This document shows, in pieces, positions 14,411 through 43,668 of a stretch of 64,000 bases of DNA (position 1 is the first letter of the stretch; each line of letters begins with the position of its first letter). Source of the DNA: an uncultured Gammaproteobacteria bacterium (GTDB lineage Bacteria > Patescibacteriota > Patescibacteriia > Magasanikbacterales > GWA2-37-8); NCBI GenBank assembly GCA_964641245.1, contig CAZXML010000004.1:5418-69417 (forward strand), read 5' to 3'. The notes below the pieces were generated by a model that saw only the letters and a list, made by a program, of their open reading frames with translations, ran no database searches and had not been told where the DNA came from. A program made the position numbers and the translations under genes.

Positions 14411-14468
14411 GGCAATTAACAATTAACAAAAAGCAATCGATTGTTAATTGTTAATTGTTAATTGTTTT
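14411..14468. repeat. Family D palindrome (CAATTAACAATTAACAA-N-TTGTTAATTGTTAATTG) upstream of murA
   Basis: Inverted repeat ending 17 bp before the murA ATG. Relatives at 24026-24095 and 43594-43668. Confidence 0.75.
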
Positions 14469-14484
14469 TTGTTAGTTATATTGT

Positions 14485-15789
14485 ATGTCCTATTTAGTTG
14501 TAAATGGAGGTAGAAAACTCAACGGAGAAATCGTTAATCAGTCTTCCAAAAATTCGGCCGAAGCCTTGCTTTGCGCCTCTTTAATGATAAAAGGGCCGGT
14601 TACTTTAACCGACGTGCCTCAAATTGAGGGTGTAAACAGAATTCTGGAGTTACTATCCAGTATTGGTGTAAAAATTGATCGTTCGGGAACAACGGTTCAT
14701 TTGGATGCGTCTGGAGAATTAAATTTAGATAAAATGGATCAGCATGCGGCTGAAGTCACCCGTACCTCTTTATTGCTTTTGGGAGCATTGGCGGCCCGGG
14801 AAAAAAAATACTTGCTTTACAAGTCCGGCGGCTGTCATTTAGGAGAGCGCACTGTTCGTCCGCACTTGTACGCGTTGCAAAAATTAGGAGTAAGTGTTGT
14901 TTCCAAGGATTGTTATTATGAAGTAAAAAATAGTCAGCCTCTTCACGCATCGCATGTTATTTTATATGAGTCTGGTGATACTACCACTGAAAATGTAATT
15001 ATGGCCGCAGTTTTGGCGCCTGGCGTCACCACTTTAAAAATGGCTTCGGCAAATTATCAGGTTCAGGATCTTTGTTATTTTTTAAATAGCGTTGGGGCAA
15101 ATATTGTCGGTATTGGCAACACCACTCTAACTATTACCGGTGTAGCAAAACTGAAGGCATCGGCAGAATATCCAATTATGCCGGATCCGATAGTGGCCAT
15201 GACATATATTTCTGTAGCTATCACTACTGCCTCAAATTTAACAATTAAAAATTGTCCGCTAGAATTTTTGGAACTGGAATTATATAAACTGGAAATAATG
15301 GGGCAGAAGTTTGTGGTTAAAAACGAAAGACTTTCCAAAAACGGGAAATTTCAAATCGTGGATGTGGAAATTATCCCAAGTAAATTAACAGCATTGCCCG
15401 ATAAAATTTACGGGCGTCCGTTTCCCGGATTGAACATAGACAATTTGCCTTTATTTATTCCGCTTTTAACGCAGGCGCGCGGCCGCACCATGGTTCATGA
15501 TTGGGCTTACGAAAACCGGGCCACTTATAGTTTGGAATTGCAAAAGCTCGGGGCAAAAATTACTTTGCTGGATCCGCATCGTATTTGGGTGGAAGGGCCG
15601 ACAGAACTTACGTCGGCGGAAATCACCTGTCCGCCCGCGCTTCGGCCCGCAGTCAATATATTAATCGCCATGCTGTCCGCCAAAGGCAAATCAGTTTTGC
15701 GAGACACCAATGTTATAGATCGCGGCTATGAAAACCTGTATGATACCCTTAACAAAGTCGGAGCAGATATTAAAGAAGTAAGCGAATAA
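14485..15789 (+). CDS. murA: UDP-N-acetylglucosamine 1-carboxyvinyltransferase
   Basis: EPT-family pattern over 434 aa. Active-site Cys context GGCHLGERTVRPH. Confidence 0.8.
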   Translation: MSYLVVNGGRKLNGEIVNQSSKNSAEALLCASLMIKGPVTLTDVPQIEGVNRILELLSSIGVKIDRSGTTVHLDASGELNLDKMDQHAAEVTRTSLLLLGALAAREKKYLLYKSGGCHLGERTVRPHLYALQKLGVSVVSKDCYYEVKNSQPLHASHVILYESGDTTTENVIMAAVLAPGVTTLKMASANYQVQDLCYFLNSVGANIVGIGNTTLTITGVAKLKASAEYPIMPDPIVAMTYISVAITTASNLTIKNCPLEFLELELYKLEIMGQKFVVKNERLSKNGKFQIVDVEIIPSKLTALPDKIYGRPFPGLNIDNLPLFIPLLTQARGRTMVHDWAYENRATYSLELQKLGAKITLLDPHRIWVEGPTELTSAEITCPPALRPAVNILIAMLSAKGKSVLRDTNVIDRGYENLYDTLNKVGADIKEVSE

Positions 15790-15820
15790 TTATTTAATTG
15801 TCATCCTGAACATTTTAACT

Positions 15821-15899
15821 ATAGGGGCTAAAGCCCATATATTCTCATTAACTCGAAAATATTTTAGCAAGCTAAATATTTTACTCATTCATTTCGAAT
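15821..15899 (+). promoter_or_regulatory. Repeated ~80-bp leader module ending ...CAAGCTAAATATTTTACTCATTCATTTCGAAT-ATG
   Basis: Near-identical module at 26116-26192. The 3' portion also occurs at 46020-46066 and 53989-54020, each ending at a start codon. It contains a TAAATAT -10-like box and no Shine-Dalgarno sequence. Confidence 0.5.
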
Positions 15900-17159
15900 A
15901 TGGATATGTCGCCTATAAAACTTAGAGCAAAAAAATACGCGGGAGTTTATTTATCGGTAATACTTTTTATCGTATCTTTTGGCATGGGCATGATGGTGGA
16001 AAAAACATGGAATGTAAAAAAACAAAATGCTAATGATAACGAAGCTCTGCGGTTGGAGAAGCTTATGGCTTCTAACCGTGAAACCAACCATTCAGATTTG
16101 GACTTCTCGCAGTTTTGGGATGTTTGGGACAAGGTAAAGTCCAAGTATGTAAAAGAACCTGCAAAAGACAAGGAAATGTTTTATGGAGCAATTCAAGGCA
16201 TGGTGGCTTCTTTAGGAGATCCATATTCACTGTATTTTCCTCCCGCCGCCGCCGATGAGTTTGCTAAGGATTTATCTGGGGAATTGGAAGGTATCGGCGC
16301 CGAGATAGGCGTAAAAAATAATCAATTGCTTGTAGTTTCACCGCTACCGAATTCTCCAGCCGAAAAAGCAGGATTAAGGCCCGGAGATAGGATTTTGGAT
16401 ATTGATAACACGAGCACATTTGGCATGGATGTTAGTACGGCTGTCAGTAAAATCAGAGGTCCGGCCAATACAAAAGTAGTGCTTACCATCACCAGAGACG
16501 GTTTAACCAAGGCTATGGAAGTGACTATTACCAGATTAAAAATAAACGTTCCCTCGATATTATTTTCGATAAAACCCGGCAATATTGCCTATCTAAGAAT
16601 AATGCAATTTAACGGCGATACTACCGATCAGCTTAATAAATATATAAAACAAATTCAAACCAGGGGCAGTAAAGGTATTGTTTTGGATATGAGAAACAAC
16701 CCCGGAGGTTATTTGAGCGCGGCTATAGATATGGCCAGCGAGTGGGTAACCAGCGGTGCGGTGGTAAGTGAAAAAGGCAGGGACGGTCAAGGTAATGATC
16801 ACCTTACTCAAGGCACCCACCGTTTGTCAGGAATCAAAACCATAGCATTGGTAAATAAGGGTTCGGCTTCGGCGTCAGAAATTGTGGCCGGCGCTTTGCA
16901 GGATACCAAACATGTGATTTTAATCGGCGAGCAAACTTACGGCAAAGGTTCAGTGCAGGATTTTGAAACTTTTCCTGATGGTTCGGCGCTCAAGTTAACC
17001 GTAGCCGAATGGTTCACGCCGAACGGAAAAAATATAAATAAAGAGGGGATTAAGCCCGATATAGAAATAAAACAAGACTGGGAGAAAGAAAAAATAGGTG
17101 AAGATGTTGTTTTAAGCAAAGCTTTGGAATTAATGGCTTCAAGCACTTTCAAATGGTAA
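15900..17159 (+). CDS. ctpA: S41 family C-terminal processing peptidase with PDZ domain
   Basis: N-terminal transmembrane helix, a PDZ region (GDRILDIDN) and catalytic-region GSASASEIVAGAL...KGSVQ. Confidence 0.8.
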   Translation: MDMSPIKLRAKKYAGVYLSVILFIVSFGMGMMVEKTWNVKKQNANDNEALRLEKLMASNRETNHSDLDFSQFWDVWDKVKSKYVKEPAKDKEMFYGAIQGMVASLGDPYSLYFPPAAADEFAKDLSGELEGIGAEIGVKNNQLLVVSPLPNSPAEKAGLRPGDRILDIDNTSTFGMDVSTAVSKIRGPANTKVVLTITRDGLTKAMEVTITRLKINVPSILFSIKPGNIAYLRIMQFNGDTTDQLNKYIKQIQTRGSKGIVLDMRNNPGGYLSAAIDMASEWVTSGAVVSEKGRDGQGNDHLTQGTHRLSGIKTIALVNKGSASASEIVAGALQDTKHVILIGEQTYGKGSVQDFETFPDGSALKLTVAEWFTPNGKNINKEGIKPDIEIKQDWEKEKIGEDVVLSKALELMASSTFKW

Positions 17160-17167
17160 TGTAAAAT

Positions 17168-17230
17168 ACTAAGGTATTTTCTAGGCACACTCGGAAATGA
17201 AAACGAATTTTCATTTCTCTCGCTTTGCCC
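17168..17230. repeat. Family C hairpin repeat immediately after stop codon (ACTAAGGTATTTT..GGCACACTCGGAAATGAAAACGAATTTTCATTTCTCTCGCTTTGCCC)
   Basis: Near-identical 64-bp copy at 20985-21048 after pyrG. Internal inverted repeat GAAATGAAAAC/GTTTTCATTTC. Confidence 0.8.
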
Positions 17231-17241
17231 GAAGATAAAAT

Positions 17242-17273
17242 CACCCCAGTCGCTTTTATGGCTGACTGGGGTG
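17242..17273 (-). terminator. Rho-independent terminator for minus-strand ORF 17293-17838
   Basis: CACCCCAGTC...GACTGGGGTG 10-bp stem with a T-run on the minus strand. Confidence 0.6.
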
Positions 17274-17292
17274 TGTTGCGTCCGGACAGTTT

Positions 17293-17838
17293 TCACTTCC
17301 GGTTTTTTTTCTCTTTCAAAGAATTCACATAAGCGGCGAGTTCGGCCAAGCACTTTGCGCTTGCCTGGGTGGGAATGCCGCCGAGGCGTAGGCCATTGTG
17401 AGCCTTATCAAGCTCCTTTTGCGCGGCCTGCAAGTTATCTTCGCCAGCTTTTTGCACTCGGCGAATCCAGTATTTATCATAGTCTAAATCGAAGAGGATT
17501 TCACGGATTTTAACATCCGTGCCCATTCCTTCATAAATACGAATTATTTGTTCTACCTCTTTCGCCTCAAAACTGGACTTGTTGATCACCAATTTGTGTT
17601 CTAACCACACGTCTTGTGGCAAACTGAGCAAAGCGCGTAAGAATTTATCCCAGAGATCAGTGTCCCGAAAGATGGTTATCATGCGCCAAAGATCATCTTT
17701 GGTCGCATCGGTAAGAAGCCGACCCAAAAATGGAGGGTCTTTTTTAACCAAATCATGGACGTATAGCCTGCCCCCGTCAAGATATATCGTTACCCGCAGT
17801 CTGGTTTTTTTCACTTCTTTTTTCATGGGCTCTCCCAT
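17293..17838 (-). CDS. Hypothetical protein (GC-elevated, terminator-flanked)
   Basis: 181 aa with no recognisable motif. Composition is noticeably GC-richer than the neighbours. Confidence 0.4.
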   Translation of the reverse strand: MGEPMKKEVKKTRLRVTIYLDGGRLYVHDLVKKDPPFLGRLLTDATKDDLWRMITIFRDTDLWDKFLRALLSLPQDVWLEHKLVINKSSFEAKEVEQIIRIYEGMGTDVKIREILFDLDYDKYWIRRVQKAGEDNLQAAQKELDKAHNGLRLGGIPTQASAKCLAELAAYVNSLKEKKNRK

Positions 17839-17901
17839 CGGTTTGGTTGTGAAAAAGCAGACAACACTAAATTAACCTTATCATAAGGTTAAAAAATGTC
17901 A

Positions 17902-17928
17902 ACCCCGCCCTTCGCGAAGGGCGGGGTC
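17902..17928 (-). terminator. Rho-independent terminator after era
   Basis: ACCCCGCCC TTCGCGAA GGGCGGGGT hairpin with a T-run on the minus strand. Confidence 0.7.
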
Positions 17929-17933
17929 AATCC

Positions 17934-18815
17934 CTAAATCTTCTCTTCCCAGCGCCGGTCGGTTTCAACCTCTAACTGAAGAAATACTTTTTTACCAAGA
18001 GCCGCTTCCAGTTCCTTGCGCGCGGCTATGCCGATTTCCTTTATGGAACGGCCTCCGGAGCCGATAATCATTTTTTTATAACGGCTGTCGTATGTATAAA
18101 TAATGGCGTTGATTACAAAAACATCCGGTTTGTCTGTTATTTCCGAAACCTCCACATGAGTAGTATACGGTACTTCCTGGCGTAAGGCTTTAAAAATTTT
18201 CTCTCTGATTAATTCCGCCACCCAAAATTTTTCATCCATATTTGTAAGCTGGGTAGGAGGGTAAGTGGCTTCACCAACCGGTAAAAGTTCAAAAACTTTA
18301 TCGCGCAACGGTTGCACATCTCTATTTTGTTCCGCCGATAATTCAAAAACCGCGGTAAATTCATCGCTCAAAGCTTTATAGTCATCTAAAAAAACCTTTT
18401 CTTTTGTAGGCAGGTCGGATTTATTAATAACCAATAATTTCGGTATTTCCAAGCCTCTTATCATGGCCAAAGTCGCGCGTTCTTCGGCGCCTAAAGACTT
18501 AGTGGGGTCAACCACATAAATTACCATATCTATGGCCTGTAAAGATTCGTGCACGCGCTGGATTAATCTTCCGGAGAGAGGGTTGCCCTTATCCTTAAAA
18601 ACTCCGGGAGTATCCACAAAGATTGCCTGCCCTTGCGCGGTGTTTAATACTCCGTGTATAATGTTTCTGGTTGTTTGCGGTTTGTCGGTGACAGCGGCCA
18701 GTTTGGTGCCAACCAGCGTGTTCAACAAAGCAGACTTCCCTACGTTAGAGCGTCCGACAAGAGTTATAAAACCGGTTTTAAATTCGCTTTTAGGTTGTTC
18801 GGCGGGTAAAATCAT
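17934..18815 (-). CDS. era: GTPase Era
   Basis: G1 GRSNVGKSALLN, G2/G3 motifs and a C-terminal KH domain. Size is 293 aa. Confidence 0.9.
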   Translation of the reverse strand: MILPAEQPKSEFKTGFITLVGRSNVGKSALLNTLVGTKLAAVTDKPQTTRNIIHGVLNTAQGQAIFVDTPGVFKDKGNPLSGRLIQRVHESLQAIDMVIYVVDPTKSLGAEERATLAMIRGLEIPKLLVINKSDLPTKEKVFLDDYKALSDEFTAVFELSAEQNRDVQPLRDKVFELLPVGEATYPPTQLTNMDEKFWVAELIREKIFKALRQEVPYTTHVEVSEITDKPDVFVINAIIYTYDSRYKKMIIGSGGRSIKEIGIAARKELEAALGKKVFLQLEVETDRRWEEKI

Positions 18816-18890
18816 ACGATTTGCCTTTGTCTCTTATTTAAGAGTATAATAATCTTGACTATACATTAAATTACCAATTAAAGCAAGGCT

Positions 18891-19337
18891 TTGAGTATGC
18901 AGGTGATTTTGATACAAAATGTACCCGGAATGGGCAAGATAGACGATATAAAAGAAGCCAGCGAAGGTTACGCCCGTAATTTTCTGTTTGCCCGGAATTT
19001 AGCCATCCCCGTAACCCTAAAAGTGCTGGCGGATTTAAAAATTCGTAAAAATAAAAAAGCCAAAGACTATGAAGTTGAATTACGTGGTGAGCAGAGTATC
19101 GCCGACAAATTGGACGGCTGGGAGTTGGTTTTAAAAGAAAAAGTCAGCACAGGAGGCTTGCTTTACGCCGCTGTTGGTCCGCAAAAAGTAGCTACCGAGC
19201 TGGTGAAAGCCGGTTTTGAAATTAGTAAAGACCAGATTATTTTAAAACCAATAAAAGAAACAGGGGAGTACAAAGCCAAAATTAAATTCCCTCACGGGTT
19301 GGAGGCGGAAATAAGAGTAATTGTTTCAAAATCTTAA
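18891..19337 (+). CDS. rplI: 50S ribosomal protein L9
   Basis: MQVILIQNVPGMGKIDDIKEASEGYARNFL matches the conserved bL9 N-terminus. Confidence 0.85.
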   Translation: MSMQVILIQNVPGMGKIDDIKEASEGYARNFLFARNLAIPVTLKVLADLKIRKNKKAKDYEVELRGEQSIADKLDGWELVLKEKVSTGGLLYAAVGPQKVATELVKAGFEISKDQIILKPIKETGEYKAKIKFPHGLEAEIRVIVSKS

Positions 19338-19346
19338 TTTAATAGC

Positions 19347-20990
19347 ATGAAAAAAACAAAATTTATATTCGTCATCGGCGGAGTGCTTAGCGGGGTGGGC
19401 AAGGGAGTCACAGCCGCATCCATCGGGCGTATTCTAAAAAACCGGGGCTTTAACGTCTCGGTTATTAAAATTGATCCATATATTAATATTGACGCCGGCA
19501 CTATGAATCCGCTGGAACACGGGGAGGTGTTTGTAACTGAAGACGGAGATGAAACCGACCAGGATTTGGGTAATTACGAGAGATTCTTGGAGGATAACAT
19601 TTATTCGTACAATTACATGACCACCGGCCGAGTGTATATGAGCGTGATTGAAAAAGAACGGAGTATGTTTTATAAAGGGCGCTGTGTGCAGGTGGTGCCT
19701 CATATTCCCATGGAAGTAATTTCGCGGATAAAAAACGCGGTAGAAAAAACCAAGGCGGAGGTAATGGTGATAGAAGTGGGTGGCACGGTAGGTGAATACG
19801 AAAATATATTATTTTTGGAAGCGGCGCGCATGATGAAGCTGGACGCCCCGGATGACGTAGCTTTTGTGTTGGTAAGTTATATGCCGGTGCCCGCTCATTT
19901 GGGAGAAATGAAAACCAAACCTACCCAGCACGCGGCCCGTACCTTGAACAATTCCGGTATTCAAGCGGATTTCATCGTGGCCAGAGGGAAAGACGAACTG
20001 GACAAGCCCAGACGCGAAAAGCTGGCGTTTTTTTGTTGGCTTCGTTCACAAGATGATGTAATTGCCGCTCCAGATGTGGCCAGTATTTATGAAATTCCCT
20101 TGGTTTTGGAAAAACAAAAATTCGCCGGTTTGCTCATGAAAAGATTAAAAATCAAACCGCGTCCGTTAGCAGACAAGCGCTGGGATGAATTTGTGGTCAA
20201 AATGAACAATGTAAAAAAACCGCTCAAGATTGCGTTGGTGGGCAAGTATTTTGCCACGGGCGGATATACTTTGGCTGATTCATATATTTCTGTAATCAAT
20301 GCCATAAAACATGCGGCTTGGCACAACGATGTTAAACCCGAACTAACATGGATTGATTCCGAAGATTATGAAAAAAATCCGGAAAAAGTAAAGGATCTTG
20401 GCGGTTATGATGCCTTGATTGTGCCCGGTGGATTTGGCACCAGAGGTATTGAAGGAATTATCAAAGCAATTAAATATGCCAGAGAAAACAATTTGCCGTA
20501 TTTGGGTTTATGTTATGGCATGCAACTTGCAACTGTAGAATTTGCGCGCAATGTTTTGGGTTATAAAGACGCGCACACTGTGGAATGCGATCCGAAAAGT
20601 AAAGAACTGATAATTAATATCAATCCAGCGCAAGCCGAGAATGTTAAAAAGGAACGTTTTGGCGGAACCATGCGCTTGGGCGCTTATGACTGCGTTCTTT
20701 CACCCGGAAGTTTGTCGCGCCAACTTTACGGCGCTGAAAAAATCAGTGAACGCCACCGCCACCGTTATGAGTTTGATAATAAATATAAATCAGAAATGGA
20801 AAAACACGGTCTCCTCGTCGCCGGGGTAAATCCGCAATCCGATCTGGTGGAAATTGTAGAATTAAAAAAACACCCATTTTTTGTGGGCGTTCAATTTCAT
20901 CCTGAATTTAAATCCCGATTTTTACAGCCGCACCCGCTTTTTGTGGGGCTGGTAAAAGCGGCCCTCAAAAAACCACATAAGAAGTACTAA
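19347..20990 (+). CDS. pyrG: CTP synthase
   Basis: N-terminal synthetase domain (KFIFVIGGVLSGVGKG) and a C-terminal glutamine amidotransferase (GLCYGMQL, HPEF). Confidence 0.95.
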   Translation: MKKTKFIFVIGGVLSGVGKGVTAASIGRILKNRGFNVSVIKIDPYINIDAGTMNPLEHGEVFVTEDGDETDQDLGNYERFLEDNIYSYNYMTTGRVYMSVIEKERSMFYKGRCVQVVPHIPMEVISRIKNAVEKTKAEVMVIEVGGTVGEYENILFLEAARMMKLDAPDDVAFVLVSYMPVPAHLGEMKTKPTQHAARTLNNSGIQADFIVARGKDELDKPRREKLAFFCWLRSQDDVIAAPDVASIYEIPLVLEKQKFAGLLMKRLKIKPRPLADKRWDEFVVKMNNVKKPLKIALVGKYFATGGYTLADSYISVINAIKHAAWHNDVKPELTWIDSEDYEKNPEKVKDLGGYDALIVPGGFGTRGIEGIIKAIKYARENNLPYLGLCYGMQLATVEFARNVLGYKDAHTVECDPKSKELIININPAQAENVKKERFGGTMRLGAYDCVLSPGSLSRQLYGAEKISERHRHRYEFDNKYKSEMEKHGLLVAGVNPQSDLVEIVELKKHPFFVGVQFHPEFKSRFLQPHPLFVGLVKAALKKPHKKY

Positions 20991-21048
20991 GGTATTTTTT
21001 AGGCACGCTCGGAAATGAAAACAAGTTTTCATTTCTCTCACTTTGCCC
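20985..21048. repeat. Family C hairpin repeat after pyrG stop
   Basis: ACTAAGGTATTTTTTAGGCACGCTCGGAAATGAAAACAAGTTTTCATTTCTCTCACTTTGCCC. About 90% identical to 17168-17230. Confidence 0.8.
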
Positions 21049-21059
21049 AAAAATAGTTA

Positions 21060-23980: not shown

Positions 23981-24025
23981 TTATATATTGTCAATTAAGG
24001 CTAATAATGGTACAATATGATTGAA

Positions 24026-24095
24026 TAATTAACAATTAGCAATGAGCAAAAAGCAAGTTGTTTGTTAATTGTTGTTTGTTAATTGTTATTTATTA
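24026..24095. repeat. Family D palindrome upstream of epimerase gene
   Basis: AATTAACAATTAGCAATGAGCAAAAAGCAAGTTGTTTGTTAATTGTTGTTTGTTAATTG. Confidence 0.7.
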
Positions 24096-24098
24096 TCT

Positions 24099-25121
24099 AT
24101 GGACACTCCTATTTTTGAGAAAAAAAACGTTTTAGTAACCGGTGGCGCCGGTTTTATCGGATCCCATCTTTGCGAACGGCTTTTAAAAGAAGCCAAGGTA
24201 ATTTGTTTAGACGATTTTTCTAATTCCTCTCCGGCTAATATAAAACACCTGTTGCAGTATCCTGATTTTGAATTTATAAAATACGATGTTAATCAGCCGA
24301 TTGATTTGGATAAATTTGAGGAGTTGGATAAGTTTAAAGTAAAATTTCAGGGTATCCAGGAAGTTTATCATTTGGCTTGCCCCACCAGCCCGCTTAACTT
24401 TGAAAAATTAAAAATGCAATCATTGTGGGCCAATTCGTCTGCCATGATTAATACTTTAGATTTGGCGGTAAAACATAAGGCCAAATATATTTTTACATCC
24501 AGTTCGGTTGTTTACGGCAACGCCAGTGAAACAAAATCTGTTTTTAAGGAAACCGATCAGGGAGTTGTCGACCATTTATCTCTACGCGCCTGCTATGACG
24601 AAGGCAAGCGTTTTGCCGAGACCTGTGTGGCCACTTACCGCCAAGTTTACGGCATAGACGCCAAAATCGCCCGCGTCTTTACCACTTACGGTCCGCACAT
24701 GAAATTATTTGAAGGCCAGATGATTCCGGATTTTATTATCAACGCATTAGAAGGAAAAAATCTTACCATTCACGGAGATGAAACATTTTCCACCTCGCTT
24801 TGTTATGTTACCGATATGGTAGACGGCTTGGTGCGTTTAATGTCCAGCGCGCCGGAAGTTCAGATTGTTAATCTTGGTGATGACAAAATTGTTAAAATGG
24901 TAGATGTCACGGAAACAATAATTAAACTGACAAATTCCGCATCCCAGGTTGTGTTTGAAAAGCCGTTGGTATTTTTAACCAAAAAAGGCGCGCCAGATTT
25001 GGCTTACGCAAAAGACGTATTGGGTTGGATGCCTTTGGTACGTCTTCAAGACGGATTGGAAAAAACAATTGATTATACTATCGCCAATAAGGAGGCGTTA
25101 ATGTTTAATCACAGATATTAG
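24099..25121 (+). CDS. NAD-dependent epimerase/dehydratase, UDP-glucuronate decarboxylase (UXS)-like
   Basis: VLVTGGAGFIGSHL Rossmann motif. YDEGKRFAETC catalytic YxxxK context. The track start at 24069 lies inside the repeat. Confidence 0.8.
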   Translation: MDTPIFEKKNVLVTGGAGFIGSHLCERLLKEAKVICLDDFSNSSPANIKHLLQYPDFEFIKYDVNQPIDLDKFEELDKFKVKFQGIQEVYHLACPTSPLNFEKLKMQSLWANSSAMINTLDLAVKHKAKYIFTSSSVVYGNASETKSVFKETDQGVVDHLSLRACYDEGKRFAETCVATYRQVYGIDAKIARVFTTYGPHMKLFEGQMIPDFIINALEGKNLTIHGDETFSTSLCYVTDMVDGLVRLMSSAPEVQIVNLGDDKIVKMVDVTETIIKLTNSASQVVFEKPLVFLTKKGAPDLAYAKDVLGWMPLVRLQDGLEKTIDYTIANKEALMFNHRY

Positions 25122-25123
25122 TT

Positions 25124-25786: not shown

Positions 25787-25787
25787 T

Positions 25788-26117: not shown

Positions 26118-26192
26118 GGGCTAAAGCCCATATAATCTCATTCGCTCGGAAATAAATTTGTAAACAATTTATTTCTCTCACTTATTTCGATT
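26116..26192 (+). promoter_or_regulatory. Second copy of the ~80-bp leader module (CTATAGGGGCTAAAGCCCATATAATCTCATTCGCTCGGAAATAAA...TTATTTCGATT-ATG)
   Basis: Homologous to 15821-15899. Its internal hairpin GGAAATAAATTTGTAAACAATTTATTTC relates it to family C. Confidence 0.5.
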
Positions 26193-28086: not shown

Positions 28087-28092
28087 TTAGCT

Positions 28093-28128
28093 GTCATCCC
28101 GAGCGAGCCGTAGCGACGAGGGATGACA
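28093..28128. repeat. Family B palindromic element (TGTCATCCCGAGCGAGCCGTAGCGACGAGGGATGACA)
   Basis: Compact 36-bp palindrome with TGTCATCC/GGATGACA termini. Relatives at 46627-46670 and 54675-54768, and as an inverted pair inside secA. Confidence 0.8.
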
Positions 28129-28644: not shown

Positions 28645-28647
28645 GTT

Positions 28648-28761
28648 CACTCTCAATCGCTCTCTCCCTCTATTAGGGGAGAGACAGAGAGAGGGGTATC
28701 GCGGCCTTTGGACAACGAATACCCCCACCCTGCCCTCCCCCTAAAAGCGGGGAGGAACGAA
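28648..28761. repeat. Family F palindromic repeats, two copies (second inverted)
   Basis: CAATCGCTCTCTCCCTCTATTAGGGGAGAGACAGAGAGAGGGGTATCG and ATACCCCCACCCTGCCCTCCCCCTAAAAGCGGGGAGGAACGA. Confidence 0.8.
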
Positions 28762-28815
28762 AAGAGTTAAGGTTCGATTTGTATCGCATTATTCATAATT
28801 CTTAATTCAACATAT

Positions 28816-30918: not shown

Positions 30919-30925
30919 ACTAGCA

Positions 30926-31004
30926 TGTCATCCTGAATTTATTTCAGGATCTTACGGTTATATTAAAATTGCACGAGAGATTCTGAAACAAGTTCAGAAT
31001 GACA
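30926..31004. repeat. Family A palindromic element
   Basis: TGTCATCCTGAATTTATTTCAGGATC ... GATTCTGAAACAAGTTCAGAATGACA. Confidence 0.8.
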
Positions 31005-31008
31005 AAGG

Positions 31009-31410: not shown

Positions 31411-31558
31411 AGGGCAGTGTTGAGCGCTAAGTACTAAGCGCTAAGTACTAAGTTATTGGAGGGCGGGTAGAAAAGAAAAGACCAGCATCGCCAGAATACC
31501 CACAAAAGAAACCACAATCCAAAGTTTTTTTATGGTTTTTCGTTTCATAGAATGATGT

Positions 31559-32560: not shown

Positions 32561-32562
32561 AA

Positions 32563-34380: not shown

Positions 34381-34382
34381 TT

Positions 34383-35999: not shown

Positions 36000-36001
36000 A
36001 A

Positions 36002-36709: not shown

Positions 36710-36908
36710 ACCAGAATATTATAGCAGAAAATAACATATTTGTGAATATTGTGTATTGTTGAATTTTATTTCGTAATAAAATTCACTTCAGAGTGAGCCA
36801 CAGCGAGTGAAGGAGAGTCCTAATTATGTTTGTGAACTGTCTTGTCGCCCGCAATTGTGTGTGTTACAGTTTAGTTAGCACATTGAACAACCAACCGGGA
36901 GAAGGAAC

Positions 36909-37571: not shown

Positions 37572-37733
37572 TAACAGAGTTGTGCTACAGCGCCCGGTTC
37601 ACCCCGCGCGCTTTTTTTATTGTCCGCATCCGTCTTTTTGAAGCAAAGCTTTGCAATTACGTCGGGCTTCAAAAGAAAAAAAATTTACTTTCTTCTTTAT
37701 TCAGCCCTAGCAATTGTGGTATACTTGTTCTAT

Positions 37734-37801
37734 GTCATGCTGAATTTATTTCAGCATCTAAACGGATGGCGATAGATCCTGAAACAAGTTCAGGATGACA
37801 A
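37734..37801. repeat. Family A palindromic element
   Basis: TGTCATGCTGAATTTATTTCAGCATC ... GATCCTGAAACAAGTTCAGGATGACA. Confidence 0.8.
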
Positions 37802-37814
37802 TTATAAAACATCT

Positions 37815-39170
37815 ATGCAACTTTCATTTTTCGGCGCGGCGGGAGAAGTAACCGGTTCGTGCAATATGTTCACGACCGGCGGGAAAAAGTTTTTGGTTGA
37901 CTGCGGGATGTTCCAGGGCAGTCAATTTAACGAAGACAAAAATAATGATCCGTTTGGTTTTGAACCTAAAGAAATTTCCGGAGTAATAATAACGCACGCG
38001 CATTTAGACCATGTGGGACGTTTGCCGTTGCTGGTAAAAAACGGATACGAGGGTAAATTTTTTGCCACACCTCCCACCGTAGAATTAACCGAATTAATTT
38101 TAGACGATGCTTTGCAAATCATGCTTTACAATCAGCGCCATTTTGGCAAGCCGGTTTTATATAACAGTACTGACATCGCTAAAGTTGTGGAGCGTTTTAA
38201 GGCAGTGGATTATCATCAAAAATATTCGCTTACTCCGGATGTGGCTTTTACTTTTTATGATGCCGGGCATATTTTTGGTTCGGCTTTTGTAAAAATAGAG
38301 GCCGAAGGAAAAAAAATAATTTTCTCCGGTGATATCGGCAACATTAACGTGCCAATCTTGCGCGACACCGACACCTTGCCTGGCGGCGTGGATGTTTTGG
38401 TTTGTGAATCAACTTACGGCGACCGTTTGCATGAGTCCGCTATGCAACGCCAGGAAATTTTAGAAAAATTAATTTCTACGGCTATTAGTAAAGGCGGCAC
38501 ATTAATGATCCCGTCTTTTTCTTTGGAACGGACTCAAGAATTAATTTATGATTTAAACGATTTGGTGGCGCGCAAACACAAACTTCCGCATGTGCCGATT
38601 TTTTTGGATAGTCCGCTGGCCATCAAAGCCACCAAAGTTTATTTAAAATATCCAAAATATTACGACGCCGAAGCCACGCGTTTAACCAAAAGCGGAGATG
38701 AGTTATTTAAATTTCCCGGATTGGTAATGACTGCCACAAAAGAAGAATCCAAAAAAATAAATCAGATGCCGGGAACAAAAATAATTATTGCCGGCGCGGG
38801 CATGATGAACGGCGGCCGCATTGTGCATCACGCTATGCGTTATTTATCCGACGCCAGAAATACTTTGCTCATCATCGGCTATCAGGCGCAAAATACTTTA
38901 GGCCGAAAAATTTTAGACGGACACTCGCCGGTAGAAATTATGGGAGAAAAAATTCCCGTCCACTGCCACGTCAAAGCCATCGGCGCTTTATCCGCCCACG
39001 GCGATCAAGATAAACTTTTAGATTGGATAGGCGGCGGATTGTCCGTTCCCAAACAAGTAATACTTACTCATGGCGAACCGGCCGCGTCTTCCGCCTTGGC
39101 CAAAAGATTGGTGGGGGATTTAGGAGTAAAAGCAACGCCAGCCAGTTTTGGATTAACAATTGAGGTATAA
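37815..39170 (+). CDS. MBL-fold beta-CASP family ribonuclease (RNA-metabolising metallo-beta-lactamase)
   Basis: HAHLDHVGRLP motif and beta-CASP motifs over 451 aa. Confidence 0.7.
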   Translation: MQLSFFGAAGEVTGSCNMFTTGGKKFLVDCGMFQGSQFNEDKNNDPFGFEPKEISGVIITHAHLDHVGRLPLLVKNGYEGKFFATPPTVELTELILDDALQIMLYNQRHFGKPVLYNSTDIAKVVERFKAVDYHQKYSLTPDVAFTFYDAGHIFGSAFVKIEAEGKKIIFSGDIGNINVPILRDTDTLPGGVDVLVCESTYGDRLHESAMQRQEILEKLISTAISKGGTLMIPSFSLERTQELIYDLNDLVARKHKLPHVPIFLDSPLAIKATKVYLKYPKYYDAEATRLTKSGDELFKFPGLVMTATKEESKKINQMPGTKIIIAGAGMMNGGRIVHHAMRYLSDARNTLLIIGYQAQNTLGRKILDGHSPVEIMGEKIPVHCHVKAIGALSAHGDQDKLLDWIGGGLSVPKQVILTHGEPAASSALAKRLVGDLGVKATPASFGLTIEV

Positions 39171-39191
39171 TTAAACTAAACTTATCCACAG

Positions 39192-39216
39192 CCCTCGCAA
39201 GTGCGGGGGTTTTTGT
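39192..39216 (+). terminator. Rho-independent terminator
   Basis: CCCTCGC AAGT GCGGGGG followed by TTTTTGTTTT. Confidence 0.55.
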
Positions 39217-39324
39217 TTTATATTAGCCAAATAAATCGATGTTAAAAATGGATTTAAATGTTGACGAGTGTTTTTAAGTGGAGTAAAATGGATACAGGTG
39301 GGAAGAAGTGGGGACCACAGCAAA

Positions 39325-39387
39325 TGTCATGCTGAACTTGTTTCAGCATCTTTCGACGACAGATCCTGAAACAAGTTCAGGATGACA
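39325..39387. repeat. Family A palindromic element
   Basis: TGTCATGCTGAACTTGTTTCAGCATC ... GATCCTGAAACAAGTTCAGGATGACA. The 3' terminus supplies an in-frame ATG upstream of mraZ. Confidence 0.8.
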
Positions 39388-39399
39388 AATAAAAAATAT

Positions 39400-39831
39400 A
39401 TGTTCATCGGTGAATATAGCCATAGCATTGACGAAAAAGGAAGAATGGCCATACCGGTCAAATTTAGGCACGACCTAAAAAACGGCGCGGTTGTCACCCG
39501 CGGTTTGGATAATTGTTTATTTATCTACACCAAAAGCGAGTGGGCAAAGGTGGCAGAAAAATACGCCAACTTGCCAATCGCGCAAGCCAACAGCCGGGCG
39601 TTTTCCCGTTTAATGCTGGCCGGCGCCATGGATGTAGAATTGGACAAACAAGGAAGAATAATGTTGCCGGAATATTTGCGCGAGTTTGCGACTGTAAAAA
39701 AGAATGTGGTAATCGCCGGACTTTATAGCCGATTAGAAATTTGGGATGAGGAAGTTTGGAATAAGTATAAAGGTCAAACCGAAGCCGAAAGCGGCGCGAT
39801 TGCGGAGAAGATGTCAGAGCTCGGTGTATAG
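39400..39831 (+). CDS. mraZ: Transcriptional regulator MraZ
   Basis: MFIGEYSHSIDEKGRMAIPVKFR closely parallels the canonical MraZ N-terminus, so the real start is probably 39400. The track start at 39382 is the repeat-borne ATG. Confidence 0.85.
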   Translation: MFIGEYSHSIDEKGRMAIPVKFRHDLKNGAVVTRGLDNCLFIYTKSEWAKVAEKYANLPIAQANSRAFSRLMLAGAMDVELDKQGRIMLPEYLREFATVKKNVVIAGLYSRLEIWDEEVWNKYKGQTEAESGAIAEKMSELGV

Positions 39832-39927
39832 AAATTACGAAATAAAGAAATTAAGAAATTAATTTCCGTGAGATCACTCAAGAGACCGAACAAATTTCCC
39901 AATTTCTTAATTTCATTATCATGCATT

Positions 39928-40896
39928 ATGCGTCACGAACCTGTGTTGCTGAAAGAAATTCTAGAATTGTTTGATCTTAAACCCAATGATAATGTTGTTG
40001 ATTGTACTTTGGGTGATGCGGGACACAGTGAAGCGATGCTGGAAAAAATTGCGCCTAAAGGAAAATTGTTGGGTATAGATCTGGATATGGAAGCGGTGTT
40101 GCGGGCGAAAAGATTTTTGTATCGTTTCGGAGATAAAGCCATAATTGTCAGAAATAATTTTACTAATTTAAAAAAAATAACAGATGAATCAAATTTCGGT
40201 CCGGTAAACGCAATTCTGATGGACTTGGGCTGGTCGTCTCCACAATTCGCAGAGAGGGGGAGAGGATTCAGTTTTCAGACGGACGAGCCACTAGACATGC
40301 GATATGACGCCTCTTGTCATTCTGAACGAAGTGAAGAATCCCTTAACAACGGAGAGGGATCCTTCGTTCCACTCAGGATGACAACACAAACGGCCGCCGA
40401 CGTTGTGAACATTTACAGCGAACAGGAATTGGCGGGAATTTTAAAAAACTTTGGCGAGGAAAATTTGAGTAAAGAGATAGCCGAAGCAATTGTTGGTTTC
40501 AGGAAGAATAAAAAATTGGAAAAAACAGGGGAGTTGGCGGAAATAATTTTACAGGTTTATCGGACAAAATTACATTCCGATAAAGCCATTCCCTGGATAG
40601 GCGGTTTGCATCCGGCCACAAAAGTTTTTCAAGCGCTACGAATGGAAGTAAATCACGAATTGGATAATTTAAAATTGGCGTTGCCTCAAGCCGTAGATGT
40701 ATTGGCAACAGGCGGGCGCCTCGCGGTCATTACATTTCATTCGTTAGAAGACAGAATCGTAAAACATTTTTTTCAATCAATCGCGGGTAAAACAATTAAA
40801 TTAATAAATAAAAAACCAATCAGCGCGACCGATGAAGAAATAAAATTAAATCCCCGCAGTCGTAGCGCCAAATTACGGGTAGTGGAGAAAATTTAA
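39928..40896 (+). CDS. rsmH: 16S rRNA (cytosine1402-N4)-methyltransferase RsmH, carrying an in-frame 23-codon palindromic insert
   Basis: MRHEPVLLKEILE start, GFSFQTDEPLDMRYD ... TAADVVN and the C-terminal domain. The track start at 39868 is upstream and probably spurious. Confidence 0.85.
   Translation: MRHEPVLLKEILELFDLKPNDNVVDCTLGDAGHSEAMLEKIAPKGKLLGIDLDMEAVLRAKRFLYRFGDKAIIVRNNFTNLKKITDESNFGPVNAILMDLGWSSPQFAERGRGFSFQTDEPLDMRYDASCHSERSEESLNNGEGSFVPLRMTTQTAADVVNIYSEQELAGILKNFGEENLSKEIAEAIVGFRKNKKLEKTGELAEIILQVYRTKLHSDKAIPWIGGLHPATKVFQALRMEVNHELDNLKLALPQAVDVLATGGRLAVITFHSLEDRIVKHFFQSIAGKTIKLINKKPISATDEEIKLNPRSRSAKLRVVEKI
40315..40383 (+). mobile_element. 69-bp palindromic element inserted in frame in rsmH (TGTCATTCTGAACGAAG ... 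CTTCGTTCCACTCAGGATGACA)
   Basis: Terminal inverted repeats of the family A/B type. Length is 69 bp, exactly 23 codons. It encodes CHSERSEESLNNGEGSFVPLRMT between the conserved DMRxD and TAADVVN segments. Confidence 0.7.
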
Positions 40897-40898
40897 AC

Positions 40899-40962
40899 TG
40901 TCATGCTGAATTTATTTCAGCATCTATGTCGTGACAGATCCTGAAACAAGTTCAGGATGACA
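40899..40962. repeat. Family A palindromic element
   Basis: TGTCATGCTGAATTTATTTCAGCATC ... GATCCTGAAACAAGTTCAGGATGACA. Confidence 0.8.
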
Positions 40963-41000
40963 ATCAATATTCATCATTCTTAATTCATAATTCAACCGTT

Positions 41001-41396
41001 GTGTCCCTAAAACGCCAAATCCAATTCCGTTACCAAGGCATGGTTCGCTCTCTGCAAACCATCTCTTTGCCTAAACAACTCACTTCCCACCGCCACGGCG
41101 GGGCCCCGCTTCATAGCGGTGGCAAAACCACCCGTTTGGCTTTATTTTCTATTATATTTTTATTTAGTTTCGCCTATATAATCAAAACCACCGCATCCGC
41201 CACCAGCGGTTACCAAATGCATGAACTGGAAAAACAAACTTCAGCCCTGGAAACCGAGGTACAAAAATTGCAGGTAGAAATTGCGGACAACAGTTCCATG
41301 AACAACATCCAATCCAGATTGGCCAAATTAAACATGATTGAGGCAAGCGGTATCAAATACTTCACGGTCAAGAATACAGAGGTTGCAAAGAAATAA
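41001..41396 (+). CDS. FtsL/DivIC-like cell-division protein, tentative
   Basis: Follows mraZ-rsmH as in dcw clusters. Has a transmembrane helix followed by a coiled coil (LEKQTSALETEVQKLQVEIADN). Confidence 0.45.
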   Translation: MSLKRQIQFRYQGMVRSLQTISLPKQLTSHRHGGAPLHSGGKTTRLALFSIIFLFSFAYIIKTTASATSGYQMHELEKQTSALETEVQKLQVEIADNSSMNNIQSRLAKLNMIEASGIKYFTVKNTEVAKK

Positions 41397-41544
41397 ATTT
41401 AATAATGTCAAAACTCTCCCGATCGGGGGAGCGTAGGTATAGACAAATAAAATAACCTGTGGTACCATTACAACGTCGCGTTTCAATGGTCGTTACGCTG
41501 CGTCATTTAGTCAAATCAAATTTAATTAATTTAATAAACAATTT

Positions 41545-41799
41545 ATGCCGAAAGCCAATTCCGCATTTATGAAGCCGATGACCATCAGCGACGAACTCGC
41601 TGTCGTCGTTGGTAAAGGTCCTATGCCACGTTCAGAGGTGGTAAAAAAACTCTGGGTTTATATCAAAAGCAAGAATTTGCAAGACCCAAACAAGAAACGG
41701 AACATCGTTGCTGACGAAGCATTGAAGGTTGTGTTTGGTGGTAAGGCTGTAGTAGACATGTTTGAAATGACAAAGCTCGTTTCCAAACACCTTTCCTAA
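41545..41799 (+). CDS. SWIB/MDM2-domain protein
   Basis: SDELAVVVGKGPMPRSEVVKKLWVYIKSKNLQDP...VFGGKAVVDMFEMTKLVSKHL matches the SWIB signature across its length. Confidence 0.8.
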   Translation: MPKANSAFMKPMTISDELAVVVGKGPMPRSEVVKKLWVYIKSKNLQDPNKKRNIVADEALKVVFGGKAVVDMFEMTKLVSKHLS

Positions 41800-41812
41800 T
41801 TTTAAATCATAA

Positions 41813-41843
41813 AAAGCATGCTCTAGTGGCGTGCTTTTTAGTT
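41813..41843 (+). terminator. Rho-independent terminator
   Basis: AAGCATGC TCTAGTG GCGTGCTT stem with one G-U pair, followed by TTTAGTTT. Confidence 0.6.
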
Positions 41844-41850
41844 TCTGCCC

Positions 41851-41879
41851 TTGACAGCAGGGCCTTTCTCTGCTATACT
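41851..41879 (+). promoter_or_regulatory. Sigma-70-type promoter (TTGACA-N17-TATACT) for the DEAD-box helicase gene
   Basis: Consensus -35 and near-consensus -10 with 17-bp spacing. Followed by a ~145-nt leader containing a long hairpin. Confidence 0.6.
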
Positions 41880-42026
41880 GACCAGTCTTAACAACTAGCC
41901 CCCAATTAAGGGCGGCTACGGACTCGCCCAGGTCATTCGACCGGGCGTCAGGTCGAATGACCTGACGAACCTCATTGTGTCATATTTAAGTGGCCTAGTA
42001 GGAATCGGGTCACTAAAATTTAACGT

Positions 42027-43316
42027 ATGACACCAAACATCCCATCCCAAGCCCGCTTTAGCGATCTTGGCATCTCGCCGAAACTTTTAGACAACCTGGA
42101 AAGGTTGAAATTTGTCGTTCCTACGCCTATTCAGCATCAGTGTATTCCCCAGGCTTTGCAAGGCAAAGACATTGTCGGTATTGCCCAAACCGGCACCGGC
42201 AAAACTTTGGCTTTCGGCATCCCAATGATACAAATTTTGTCTCAAATGCCGGGCAACGCCCAGGGTTTAATCTTGCTTCCTACCCGCGAATTGGCTTTGC
42301 AGGTAGATCAGGTTTTGCAAACAATCGGCCGTCCAATCGGTCTGCGCACCGCTGTGTTAATCGGTGGCGCTTCCGGTTTCGCGCAAAAACAAATGTTGCG
42401 TCGCGGTCCGCATATTATTGTGTCCACTCCTGGCAGATTAATGGATCACGTTGATCAAAAAAATCTTTCTTTAACCAACATGAAAATTGTGGTGCTGGAC
42501 GAAGCCGACCGCATGTTTGACATCGGTTTTATGCCGCAAATCAAACAAATTCTCGGGATGATTTCCCGTGACAGACAAACTTTAATGTTTTCCGCCACCA
42601 TGCCAAAAGCAATCGCGGAAATCGCCACCCGCTACATGAAAATTCCGCTTCGTATAGAAGTGGCTCCATCCGGAACATCCGCCAAAAACGTGGAACAGGA
42701 AATCTTTATTGTAAATAAGGATGCCAAGATGCAACTTCTGGATAAAATTTTAGCGGATAATCACGGTTCTGTTTTGCTTTTTTCACGCACAAAACACGGC
42801 GCCAAAAGAATCGCCAGCGGCATTCGCGCCATGGGCCACACCGCTTCCGAAATTCATTCCAACAAATCTTTGTCTCAACGCAAAATGGCTTTGGAAGGAT
42901 TTAAAACCGGCAAGCACCGCGTTCTTGTGGCTACGGATATCGCATCCCGCGGTATAGACGTCACCGGAATTTCTTTGGTAATAAATTATGATTTACCGGA
43001 TAACACCGAAGATTACGTTCACCGCATCGGCCGCACCGGCCGGGCCGAAAGTTTTGGCAAGGCAATCTCGTTTGCCACTCCGCAAGAATGGGTAGACATC
43101 CGCCACATAGAAAAACTAATCAAAAAATCAATTCCGGTACGACCATTACCCGTCTTACCGCCACGCCGGACAAATGTCGCCGAACACTATGAAGAAACTT
43201 CCGGGTATCAAGGTGGAGGCAGGGGCAGAAGCGGTGGCAAAGGCGGTTATCAAGGAGCAAGAAAACCTTATGGAGGTTCATCCGGAGGCAACAAAAATTT
43301 CCGCAGACGATATTAA
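42027..43316 (+). CDS. DEAD-box ATP-dependent RNA helicase with RGG-rich C-terminal tail
   Basis: Q-motif, AQTGTGKT, VLDEADRMFDIGF, SAT and HRIGRTGRA motifs. C-terminal GGGRGRSGGKGGYQG repeats. Confidence 0.9.
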   Translation: MTPNIPSQARFSDLGISPKLLDNLERLKFVVPTPIQHQCIPQALQGKDIVGIAQTGTGKTLAFGIPMIQILSQMPGNAQGLILLPTRELALQVDQVLQTIGRPIGLRTAVLIGGASGFAQKQMLRRGPHIIVSTPGRLMDHVDQKNLSLTNMKIVVLDEADRMFDIGFMPQIKQILGMISRDRQTLMFSATMPKAIAEIATRYMKIPLRIEVAPSGTSAKNVEQEIFIVNKDAKMQLLDKILADNHGSVLLFSRTKHGAKRIASGIRAMGHTASEIHSNKSLSQRKMALEGFKTGKHRVLVATDIASRGIDVTGISLVINYDLPDNTEDYVHRIGRTGRAESFGKAISFATPQEWVDIRHIEKLIKKSIPVRPLPVLPPRRTNVAEHYEETSGYQGGGRGRSGGKGGYQGARKPYGGSSGGNKNFRRRY

Positions 43317-43327
43317 AAAATAAAAAA

Positions 43328-43359
43328 ATGATCGCCCAAAAGGCGGTCATTTTTTGTTG
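43328..43359 (+). terminator. Rho-independent terminator
   Basis: ATGATCGCC CAAAA GGCGGTCAT followed by TTTTTGTTG. Confidence 0.7.
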
Positions 43360-43437
43360 TTTTAGGCCATTTTATTTGATATTGACATAAGCCGTAATTT
43401 CACATACAATATGAGCATAATTTTCTAATCGAAATAT

Positions 43438-43590
43438 ATGCCAGAAACTACCTCCGCATTTGAAGCCTATTTAAAGGATTTACAAAATAATACATTGCCT
43501 AAAAAAGGCAGGGTCGGCAAGCTGGCCACAGCGTTGGATGAATTGGCGGAAAAAGAAGAAGAGGAGCCGGAAGTTGATATCGCGGCTTAA
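43438..43590 (+). CDS. Possible small acidic protein (50 aa)
   Basis: ORF MPETTSAFEAYLKDLQNNTLPKKGRVGKLATALDELAEKEEEEPEVDIAA is below the track cutoff. Supported by coding-like composition only. Confidence 0.25.
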   Translation: MPETTSAFEAYLKDLQNNTLPKKGRVGKLATALDELAEKEEEEPEVDIAA

Positions 43591-43593
43591 GAA

Positions 43594-43668
43594 TAATTAG
43601 CAATTAGCAACTAACAATTAACAAGTTGGTTGTCGATTGCTATTTGTTTATTGTTAGTTGCTAATTAA
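43594..43668. repeat. Family D palindrome upstream of gdhA
   Basis: AATTAGCAATTAGCAACTAACAATTAACAA ... TTGTTTATTGTTAGTTGCTAATTAATT. Ends 5 bp before the gdhA ATG. Confidence 0.75.

Follow-up and report, generated by a model that had tools for sequence, protein, structure and literature searches.

The stretch of DNA studied here (contig CAZXML010000004.1 of assembly GCA_964641245.1) is 64 kb long and is referred to as the window, to which all coordinates are relative. It contains three palindromes, located directly upstream of murA, of a UXS-like epimerase gene and of gdhA. The gene identities are backed by Pfam (EPSP_synthase/MurA fold, NAD-dependent epimerase/dehydratase, and Glu/Leu/Phe/Val dehydrogenase, respectively), and the named homologues of MurA and GdhA are from Candidatus Magasanikbacteria or Patescibacteria. 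A preliminary description had presented the palindromes as a possible dimeric transcription-factor operator or shared 5'-untranslated region (UTR) structure, with a dispersed palindrome family as the fallback. The existence of all three palindromes, and their membership of a single family, is borne out by the enrichment of their half-site, by their arms and by their folds. The coordinates of all features are presented in Table 1.

The family unit is the heptamer AATTA(A/G)C, which is repeated three to five times in tandem; a comparable series of reverse-complement units comes next. The inverted-repeat finder yielded arms of 22-33 nt with 76-96% complementarity, separated by 0, 5, 11 or 19 nt. 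According to Tandem Repeats Finder, each arm is itself a period-7 array of 2.4-5 copies, with CAATTAA or AATTAGC as the unit on the left and TTGTTAA on the right; the arms are thus heptanucleotide repeats in the sense of a 7-nt unit repeated head to tail in at least about 2.5 copies. When the half-site TTGTTAATTGTTAATT was searched with up to three mismatches, the window gave 30 matches; 100 dinucleotide shuffles gave 3.19 ± 1.67, and none of them reached 30. These matches are mostly overlapping registers within the three sites, and two more are inside grpE, where a single-arm array without an inverted partner was overlooked by the preliminary description. The grpE array is in-frame, and the GrpE segment it encodes (KLAINNEQLAN) is not conserved in the relative L085. 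Three of the four window copies are intergenic.

Table 1. Coordinates of the hairpins, their surroundings and other repeats in the window.
Feature	Position	Strand	Description
Hairpin 1 (murA)	14408-14474	+	Left arm (CAATTAA)2.4, apex AAAAGCAATCGA, right arm (TTGTTAA)5 into T-rich tail; inverted-repeat arms 14408-14429/14441-14462 (91%); murA ATG at 14485
Hairpin 2 (epimerase)	24024-24094	+	Left array AATTAAC AATTAGC AATGAGC AAAAAGC, then inverted copy; inverted-repeat arms 24024-24056/24062-24094 (76%); epimerase ATG at 24099
Hairpin 3 (gdhA)	43591-43670	+	Between small-ORF stop codon (43588-43590) and gdhA ATG (43673); core arms 43602-43624/43644-43666 (96%)
Period-7 arrays in the arms	14413-14429, 14440-14474, 24027-24049, 24062-24088, 43595-43624		Found with Tandem Repeats Finder
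Single-arm array	6069-6098	+	AATTAGC AATTAAC AACGAAC AACTAGC inside grpE
Conserved murA leader motif	14388-14396	+	AGTCAAAGG, displaced from ATG by 88-nt insert (14397-14484)
murA promoter, sigma-70-like	14335-14363	+	TTGCAA-17-TATACT; predicted start ~14370, ~40 nt 5' of hairpin
Epimerase promoter, sigma-70-like	23988-24016	+	TTGTCA-17-TACAAT, extended TG; predicted start ~24023, foot of hairpin
gdhA promoter, sigma-70-like	43382-43410	+	TTGACA-17-TACAAT, 11/12; 3' of helicase terminator (43323-43355)
Small open reading frame (ORF), 50 aa	43438-43590	+	Directly 5' of gdhA; homologues of 55-56 aa in relatives
Hairpin before secA	54850-54945		Other repeat unit
Hairpin before mraW	39830-39919		Other repeat unit; in mraZ-mraW spacer
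Hairpin after gdhA	44911-45006		Other repeat unit
Second palindrome family	4361-4425, 12889-12965, 30926-31004, 39325-39387, 40899-40962		TGTCATSCTGAAC...GTTCAGGATGACA; partial copies near 15800 and 37770
Third repeat family	5781-5863, 6673-6841, 7232-7420, 28645-28780, 57822-57880		GC-richer CTCTCCCCTTTTAGGGGAGAG hairpins with tail ...GAGGGGTAT
Fourth family	17190-17222, 21008-21045, 26148-26192		CGGAAATGAAAAC...TTTTCATTTCTCTCACT
ACTCATTTCGA(A/T)T motif	15880-15899, 26177-26192, 54005-54020		Directly 5' of ATGs 15900, 26193 and 54021
ORF of PF05635 family, 127 aa	49028-49411		'23S rRNA-intervening sequence protein'; octamer arrays (GAAATTAG)n upstream (48998-49032) and (TAATTTCN)n downstream (49447-49491)
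21-nt tandem repeat	54093-54166		3.5 copies of GAGAGATTTGAGAAAATAGAC inside ORF 54021-54386

The mutual identity of the copies is only about 74%. A covariance model built from five Magasanikbacteria copies scored hairpins 1, 2 and 3 at 73.7, 85 and 92.2 bits, respectively. The murA and epimerase copies have a degenerate apex unit, CAAAAAGCAA, and a T-rich tail in common, and the apex motif TCGATT(T)G is found in the window's murA and gdhA copies as well as in the copy of the relative L122. The copy at locus L044 carries CCGATTTG at its apex, of which only the CAAGTC side is common with L122. As judged from these apex sequences, the common motifs point to some copying between sites. A JGI metagenome contig and a Logan assembly carry the identical MurA protein and the identical DNA upstream of its gene, including hairpin 1, so the hairpin is not an assembly artefact.

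As RNA, the sense strands fold with -26.6 (murA), -24.2 (epimerase) and -29.8 kcal/mol (gdhA), which correspond to z-scores of -5.56, -3.77 and -5.50 against shuffled sequences. At the gathering score, the only Rfam match in the window is one tRNA, with none at the hairpins; at E <= 1, generic miRNA-precursor hairpins are matched with 15-23 bits, far under their thresholds. The array or palindrome ends 10-20 nt before the ATG of murA, 4 nt before that of the epimerase gene and 6 nt before that of gdhA. The near-fixed distance to the start codon reported previously therefore holds, with values of 4-20 nt that lie inside the predicted 5' UTRs.

The hairpins are placed in 5' leaders because putative near-consensus promoters are located upstream of all three. 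Relative to the predicted transcription starts, the hairpins begin at about +40 (murA), +1 (epimerase) and +180 (gdhA). The -10 box TATACT and the leader downstream of it are kept in murA orthologs, the epimerase promoter is kept in most orthologous loci, and the promoter at 43382-43410 would, by its position, drive both the small ORF and gdhA. A weak promoter-like site within hairpin 1 (TTGTTA-16-TATATT, 14455-14482) was also considered and rejected: transcription from it is predicted to start no earlier than the ATG, and conservation is seen for the upstream promoter instead. Although the promoters are conserved, the leader between -10 box and ATG is hypervariable in orthologs.

The comparison of orthologous upstream regions, which the preliminary description had suggested as a check, shows that the closest relatives, Candidatus Magasanikbacteria with 83-95% protein identity, lack the hairpin at all three sites. 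Synteny around murA is conserved, with a PEGA gene on the minus and murA on the plus strand, and none of 15 orthologous loci, with 63-95% identity over the first 60 residues, has the hairpin. In these orthologs the ATG adjoins a leader motif, (T)AGTCAAAG(R)(T), at 1-8 nt, or another short leader; the AGTCAAAG motif is found by the murA ATG in L087-L092, L096, L129, L132, L141 and others, and its counterpart in the window is the one displaced by the insert. The sole murA orthologs with an insert of their own are L085 and L086 (85%), in which it is 72 nt long and degenerate, with a similar T-rich tail. The L085 insert was evaluated as a conserved hairpin and rejected, since its fold is no better than that of shuffled sequences (z = +0.5).

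For the epimerase gene, 57 related loci from a metagenome scan were compared, about 44 of which include the 5' end of the gene. None of these approximately 44 leaders carries a CAATTAR hairpin; they are hypervariable and often consist of 7-8-nt tandem arrays. In L132 (91% identity), a direct array, TAGTAAT TAGCAAT TAGAAAT TAACAAT, occupies the same position, and the leaders of L087 and L094 have (AATTAGN)3. The window's leader has about 40 nt more, namely the right arm, which is unmatched in any relative and is the reverse complement of the left array. From this alignment, the window's epimerase copy looks like a direct array plus a local inverted duplication, as would be expected of a template switch. 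Other heptamer hairpins are found at the same site in L122 (AGCTTAT) and L131 (TAGGAAT).

The gdhA hairpin is absent from the five orthologous loci (L150-L154). The small-ORF stop is 10, 9 and 1 nt from the ATG in L151, L152 and L153/L154 (83-90%), respectively, and the spacer of L150 (93%) holds an unrelated 50-nt, GC-containing insert. The murA and gdhA hairpins are hence clean insertions immediately 5' of the ATG. Comparing sites with and without the insert, AGTCAAAGG/insert/ATG against AGTCAAAGATATG at murA and likewise at gdhA, revealed no target-site duplication, save a self-complementary TAATTA at gdhA. With the hairpin absent from the murA, epimerase and gdhA orthologs, and the L085/L086 insert degenerate and non-folding, the idea of a conserved shared regulatory structure is not supported.

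A census of about 730 kb of Magasanikbacteria DNA puts the hairpins in the context of their lineage. Seven is the commonest tandem period (105 of 539 arrays), and 56 of these 105 arrays are intergenic, whereas spacers between genes make up about 7% of the sequence. Within 50 co-directional spacers, arrays with units of 7, 8 or 14 nt have a median distance of 7 nt to the start and 41 nt from the upstream stop; convergent spacers account for only 3 of the 58 that hold arrays. Start-codon proximity is therefore a property of all heptamer arrays in the lineage, not of this palindrome. The covariance model found four strong members in 660 kb, three of them in the 64-kb window; the relatives, with about 600 kb, contribute a single one, located in L122, where it precedes a minus-strand ATG by 5 nt. 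This indicates a burst of copies in the window's genome.

The starts themselves lack a Shine-Dalgarno (SD) signal. Among 407 ATG-start genes from the window and the related loci L085-L154, the 4-nt SD core is present in 5.7%, compared with 6.5% in shuffled leaders. In the 30 nt upstream of these starts, A+T makes up about 80% and G close to 10%, and T occupies position -1 in 78% of cases, which looks like a start context resembling Kozak in a lineage of the candidate phyla radiation (CPR).

Beyond the lineage, the identical CAATTA(A/G) foldback pattern was found in 82 stretches (L003-L084) from about 47 species-representative GTDB genomes, all of them metagenome-assembled genomes (MAGs) and none from an isolate. 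As labelled, the hosts are Planctomycetota, Chloroflexota, Cyanobacteriota, Bacteroidota, Ignavibacteria, Victivallales, Gamma- and Betaproteobacteria, Rickettsiales, Nitrospira, Firmicutes, Patescibacteria and others. The GC content of the loci is 29-67%, with 24 loci above 50%. Crude ORF calls place 38 of the 82 loci in co-directional, 14 in divergent and 12 in convergent contexts. The hairpins fill small spacers, and their median distance is 5.5 nt to stops and 22 nt to starts, values which derive from rough gene calls. A general start-codon bias across phyla was rejected, as none exists outside particular genomes: the hairpins adjoin stops in the cyanobacterial MAGs, but mostly starts in a MAG labelled 'Rhizobium sp. 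Q54' and in one from Rickettsiales. Orthologous cyanobacterial copies differ by whole heptamer units of the right arm (L020 against L053, L034 against L036), a direct view of slippage. The Rickettsiales MAG has five copies, of which L054, L067, L068 and L078 end in GTTAACTG, and L054 and L067 also begin with CAGTTAAC. A further 173 period-7 arrays are present in the foldback loci, with AACAATT (24) and AATTAGC (10) as top units, followed by other units with an AATT core. A phage origin was considered and set aside: the pattern has no match in IMG/VR viral contigs, but two permuted-heptamer controls yielded 1 and 0, so this search is uninformative on whether the unit is special.

The reading we favor, with a probability of roughly 0.6, is that the hairpins are a foldback repeat derived from slippage and template switching, i.e., an inverted-array variant of start-proximal heptamer repeats that is young and lineage-specific and would act at most as a modulatory 5'-UTR stem-loop. 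The fallback of the preliminary description, a dispersed palindrome family with a preference for gene starts, comes close to this. In the proposed mechanism, replication slippage would generate a direct heptamer array in a leader, and a strand or template switch would then add an inverted copy of the array, the AATT core of the unit being self-complementary. The resulting foldback may subsequently have been copied into other AT-rich spacers preceding an ATG. Each copy would be transcribed as part of a 5' UTR and form an AU-rich stem-loop of 23-33 bp with -24 to -30 kcal/mol, leaving a short U-rich single strand before the AUG. The hairpin would be tolerated because ribosomes load on AU-rich leaders without an SD sequence, and it would at most modulate mRNA stability or initiation at individual genes, without being a shared regulatory signal. 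Template switching can create RNA hairpins (PMC8794818), and PMC8794818 and PMC7202029 describe template-switch (quasipalindrome) mutations that create or perfect hairpins. The window's epimerase leader, compared with that of L132, matches such a one-step inverted copy beside a direct array; template switching is a mutational mechanism rather than an element family, and its action here is proposed from that comparison.

Several observations weigh against this reading. No precursor array exists at murA or gdhA in any relative, such that growth in situ is seen only at the epimerase site, and the apex motifs common to other Magasanikbacteria copies fit a propagating element better than repeated independent birth. 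The foldback is also found in genomes of up to 67% GC, which is beyond pure slippage drift. In all three hairpins the sense strand is more stable than the antisense strand, which could hint at selection at the RNA level. Moreover, promoter consensus is the sole basis for the predicted 5'-UTR status, and hence for the transcription, of the hairpins.

The strand difference bears on the possibility that the hairpins are adaptive 5'-UTR RNA elements tuning the downstream gene in this strain, whether as a 5'-terminal stabilizer against decay, an RNase III site, a partial block to 30S loading or a platform for an S1- or cold-shock-type protein. We regard this as unlikely, though it has several points in its favor: the sense folds are stable, significant and more stable than their antisense counterparts in three of three cases, hairpin 2 begins at the predicted +1, and the AUG follows each hairpin at 4-20 nt in a genome that lacks SD signals. 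In addition, most copies abut starts in the 'Rhizobium sp. Q54'-labelled and Rickettsiales MAGs, and start-near heptamer repeats have been proposed, and partly tested, as translational or transcriptional modulators (PMC4679880; bioRxiv 10.1101/2022.06.06.494920). However, the hairpin is missing from orthologous sites of relatives as close as 90-95% in protein identity, the fold is lost in the single older insert (L085), and across phyla the foldback is equally found beside stop codons and in convergent spacers. Typing of the mismatches gives 6 G.U against 2 A.C in the three hairpins, which is not significant, and the opposite tendency (5 against 7) in the other heptamer hairpins of the window. 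Two of the latter are more stable on the antisense strand. Strand asymmetry was not used as evidence. The presence/absence polymorphism at exact points before the murA and gdhA ATGs would also be expected of a non-autonomous mobile element similar to miniature inverted-repeat transposable elements (MITEs) or REPINs (hairpins of paired repetitive extragenic palindromic, or REP, sequences), mobilized by a transposase in trans and preferring the AT-rich spacer before starts. The three copies in 64 kb here against one in about 600 kb of relatives, the apex motifs common to copies of different Magasanikbacteria, the common ends GTTAACTG and CAGTTAAC in the Rickettsiales MAG, and the other palindrome families of the window that hug start codons agree with it. 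Yet the two clean insertions lack a target-site duplication, the copies are only about 74% alike, the epimerase copy has a precursor array in situ in relatives, and viral contigs hold no copy. A Pfam scan of 39 window ORFs revealed no transposase, RAYT (Y1_Tnp) or integrase domain. Mobility of this kind hence seems improbable.

A broader reading takes the foldback as an element or motif of bacteria at large, brought by horizontal spread or by strong convergence into the at least about 47 uncultured genomes, which by their labels belong to about a dozen major groups, its array being recognized by a conserved component (S1, a cold-shock-type or nucleoid protein, or a replisome part), and which would serve as a portable module for SD-independent initiation or mRNA stability before any ATG in SD-less lineages such as Magasanikbacteria; this we consider distinctly improbable. 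The U-rich stretch 3' of each hairpin (GUUUUUUGUU, UUAUUUAUUAU, AAUUUUAU), together with the frequent location of the foldback 0-10 nt past stop codons in other phyla, convergent spacers included, could suggest a leader attenuator or weak intrinsic terminator that stops a fraction of transcripts. Nevertheless, a terminator scan was negative at the three hairpins and positive at the GC-rich 43323-43355, the recognizable terminators of this genome being GC-rich stems. A strong terminator before the essential murA would also be costly, and the element is absent in relatives, which makes attenuation very unlikely. As for the dimeric transcription-factor operator originally put forward, dyad symmetry and the presence of one half-site at three genes speak for it, but the half-site spacing is 0, 5, 11 or 19 nt, the arms vary from 2.4 to 5 units, the position relative to the promoter changes from about +1 to +40 and +180, and no ortholog has kept the element. 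Unrelated genes are preceded by different heptamer hairpins, and in other phyla the foldback is located between convergent genes. An operator is thus hardly credible, and with it falls the suggested co-regulation of cell-wall, nucleotide-sugar and nitrogen metabolism. Integron attC sites were likewise rejected: by inspection, AATTAAC/GTTAATT misfits the R'' RYYYAAC and R' GTTRRRY cores, no integrase was seen, and the flanks are core housekeeping genes in conserved synteny.

Compared with described systems, the hairpins are closest to the TAACTGA direct repeats located directly upstream of SD-less starts in marine Beggiatoaceae, some Cyanobacteria and Bacteroidetes (MacGregor 2015, PMC4679880). 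One Beggiatoaceae genome has 169 direct TAACTGA sets and one indirect (PMC4679880), and heptamers are the most abundant long simple-sequence repeats (LSSRs; PMC4679880, summarizing Mrazek 2007). Heptamer repeats near start codons are also reported for Nostoc (bioRxiv 10.1101/2022.06.06.494920). Both TAACTGA repeats and the present ones consist of tandem 7-nt units (2-6 copies in TAACTGA), are intergenic and a few nucleotides upstream of starts, precede SD-less genes of unrelated function and have a patchy phylogenetic distribution. They differ in the unit, here AATTA(A/G)C, in its pairing with the reverse complement to form hairpins, in the CPR host, and in that absence from orthologous sites is shown directly here. 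A literature search for the exact repeat strings found no paper.

Heptanucleotide repeats of the short tandemly repeated repetitive (STRR) type were reportedly described in cyanobacteria by Mazel in 1990. With STRR and LSSR heptamers the hairpins have in common a dominant period of 7, an intergenic location, fast turnover of copy number and frequent proximity to promoters or starts, and cyanobacterial MAGs carry identical CAATTAA foldbacks. However, classical STRR units differ and are usually described as direct arrays. In Neisseria, Correia/NEMIS elements are small palindromic repeats near gene starts that are co-transcribed into 5' UTRs, where the hairpin can be processed and can alter expression. 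They are 100-150 bp long, with defined terminal inverted repeats, a TA target duplication, and promoter and IHF sites. These elements offer a model for how the hairpins could act, although defined ends, TA duplication and promoter or IHF sites are not seen here. REPs are usually GC-rich, have a conserved 5' tetranucleotide, are mostly found 3' of genes and depend on a REP-associated tyrosine transposase (RAYT). REPINs and REP elements (Bertels and Rainey 2011, PMC3116915) resemble the present copies in several ways: two short repeats in inverted order form a hairpin of about 60-90 nt, the copies are scattered through extragenic DNA, and bursts occur within a genome. Unlike them, the hairpins studied here have tandem heptamer arms in place of a unique REP, and no RAYT was seen in the window.

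Hairpins with other repeat units, also missed by the preliminary description, are located before secA, before mraW and after gdhA. Their units, of 7, 8 or 19 nt, are TAAGTAT/ATACCTA, AGAAATTA and GATGATTAAGAAATAAAAA, and their z-scores range from -2.7 to -8.8 on the plus strand and from -4.1 to -7.9 on the minus strand; those at 54850 and 39830 are the ones more stable on the antisense strand. Unrelated heptamer hairpins and other palindrome families occupy the same position before the ATG at genes without a functional relation, among them secA, mraW, mraZ and recJ. In the second palindrome family, the terminal GGATGACA provides the start codon of RNase H (12894, minus strand) and of MraZ (39382), such that both begin ATGACAAAT straight out of the repeat. 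Other copies stop 7-16 nt short of the start codons at 4441, 30918 (minus strand) and 37815. Copies of the third family are often double or triple in one spacer. The ACTCATTTCGA(A/T)T motif, which is related to the fourth family, precedes unrelated genes and is also found before the epimerase gene in the relative L100. The ORF of the PF05635 family is flanked by inverted octamer arrays and looks like a cassette within a long-range stem, and the ORF that contains the 21-nt tandem repeat has no Pfam match.

The small ORF between the gdhA promoter and hairpin 3 has homologues at 2636-2806 in L152 and 2279-2446 in L153, and in relatives it is probably translationally coupled to gdhA. Its product has an acidic tail and the pattern MPE..T.AFE.YLK...GR.L..A.DE..EK.., with no Pfam match.

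These results remove a false annotation lead, as no shared operator or regulon links murA, nucleotide-sugar metabolism and gdhA. What emerges is a CPR lineage with SD-less initiation, a strong preference for T at position -1 and fast-evolving heptamer repeats before essential genes. It constitutes a natural test system for SD-independent ribosome loading against leader structure, and for the way in which simple repeats become RNA hairpins through template switching. That an identical foldback recurs in many phyla, GC-rich genomes included, may merit a study of its own.

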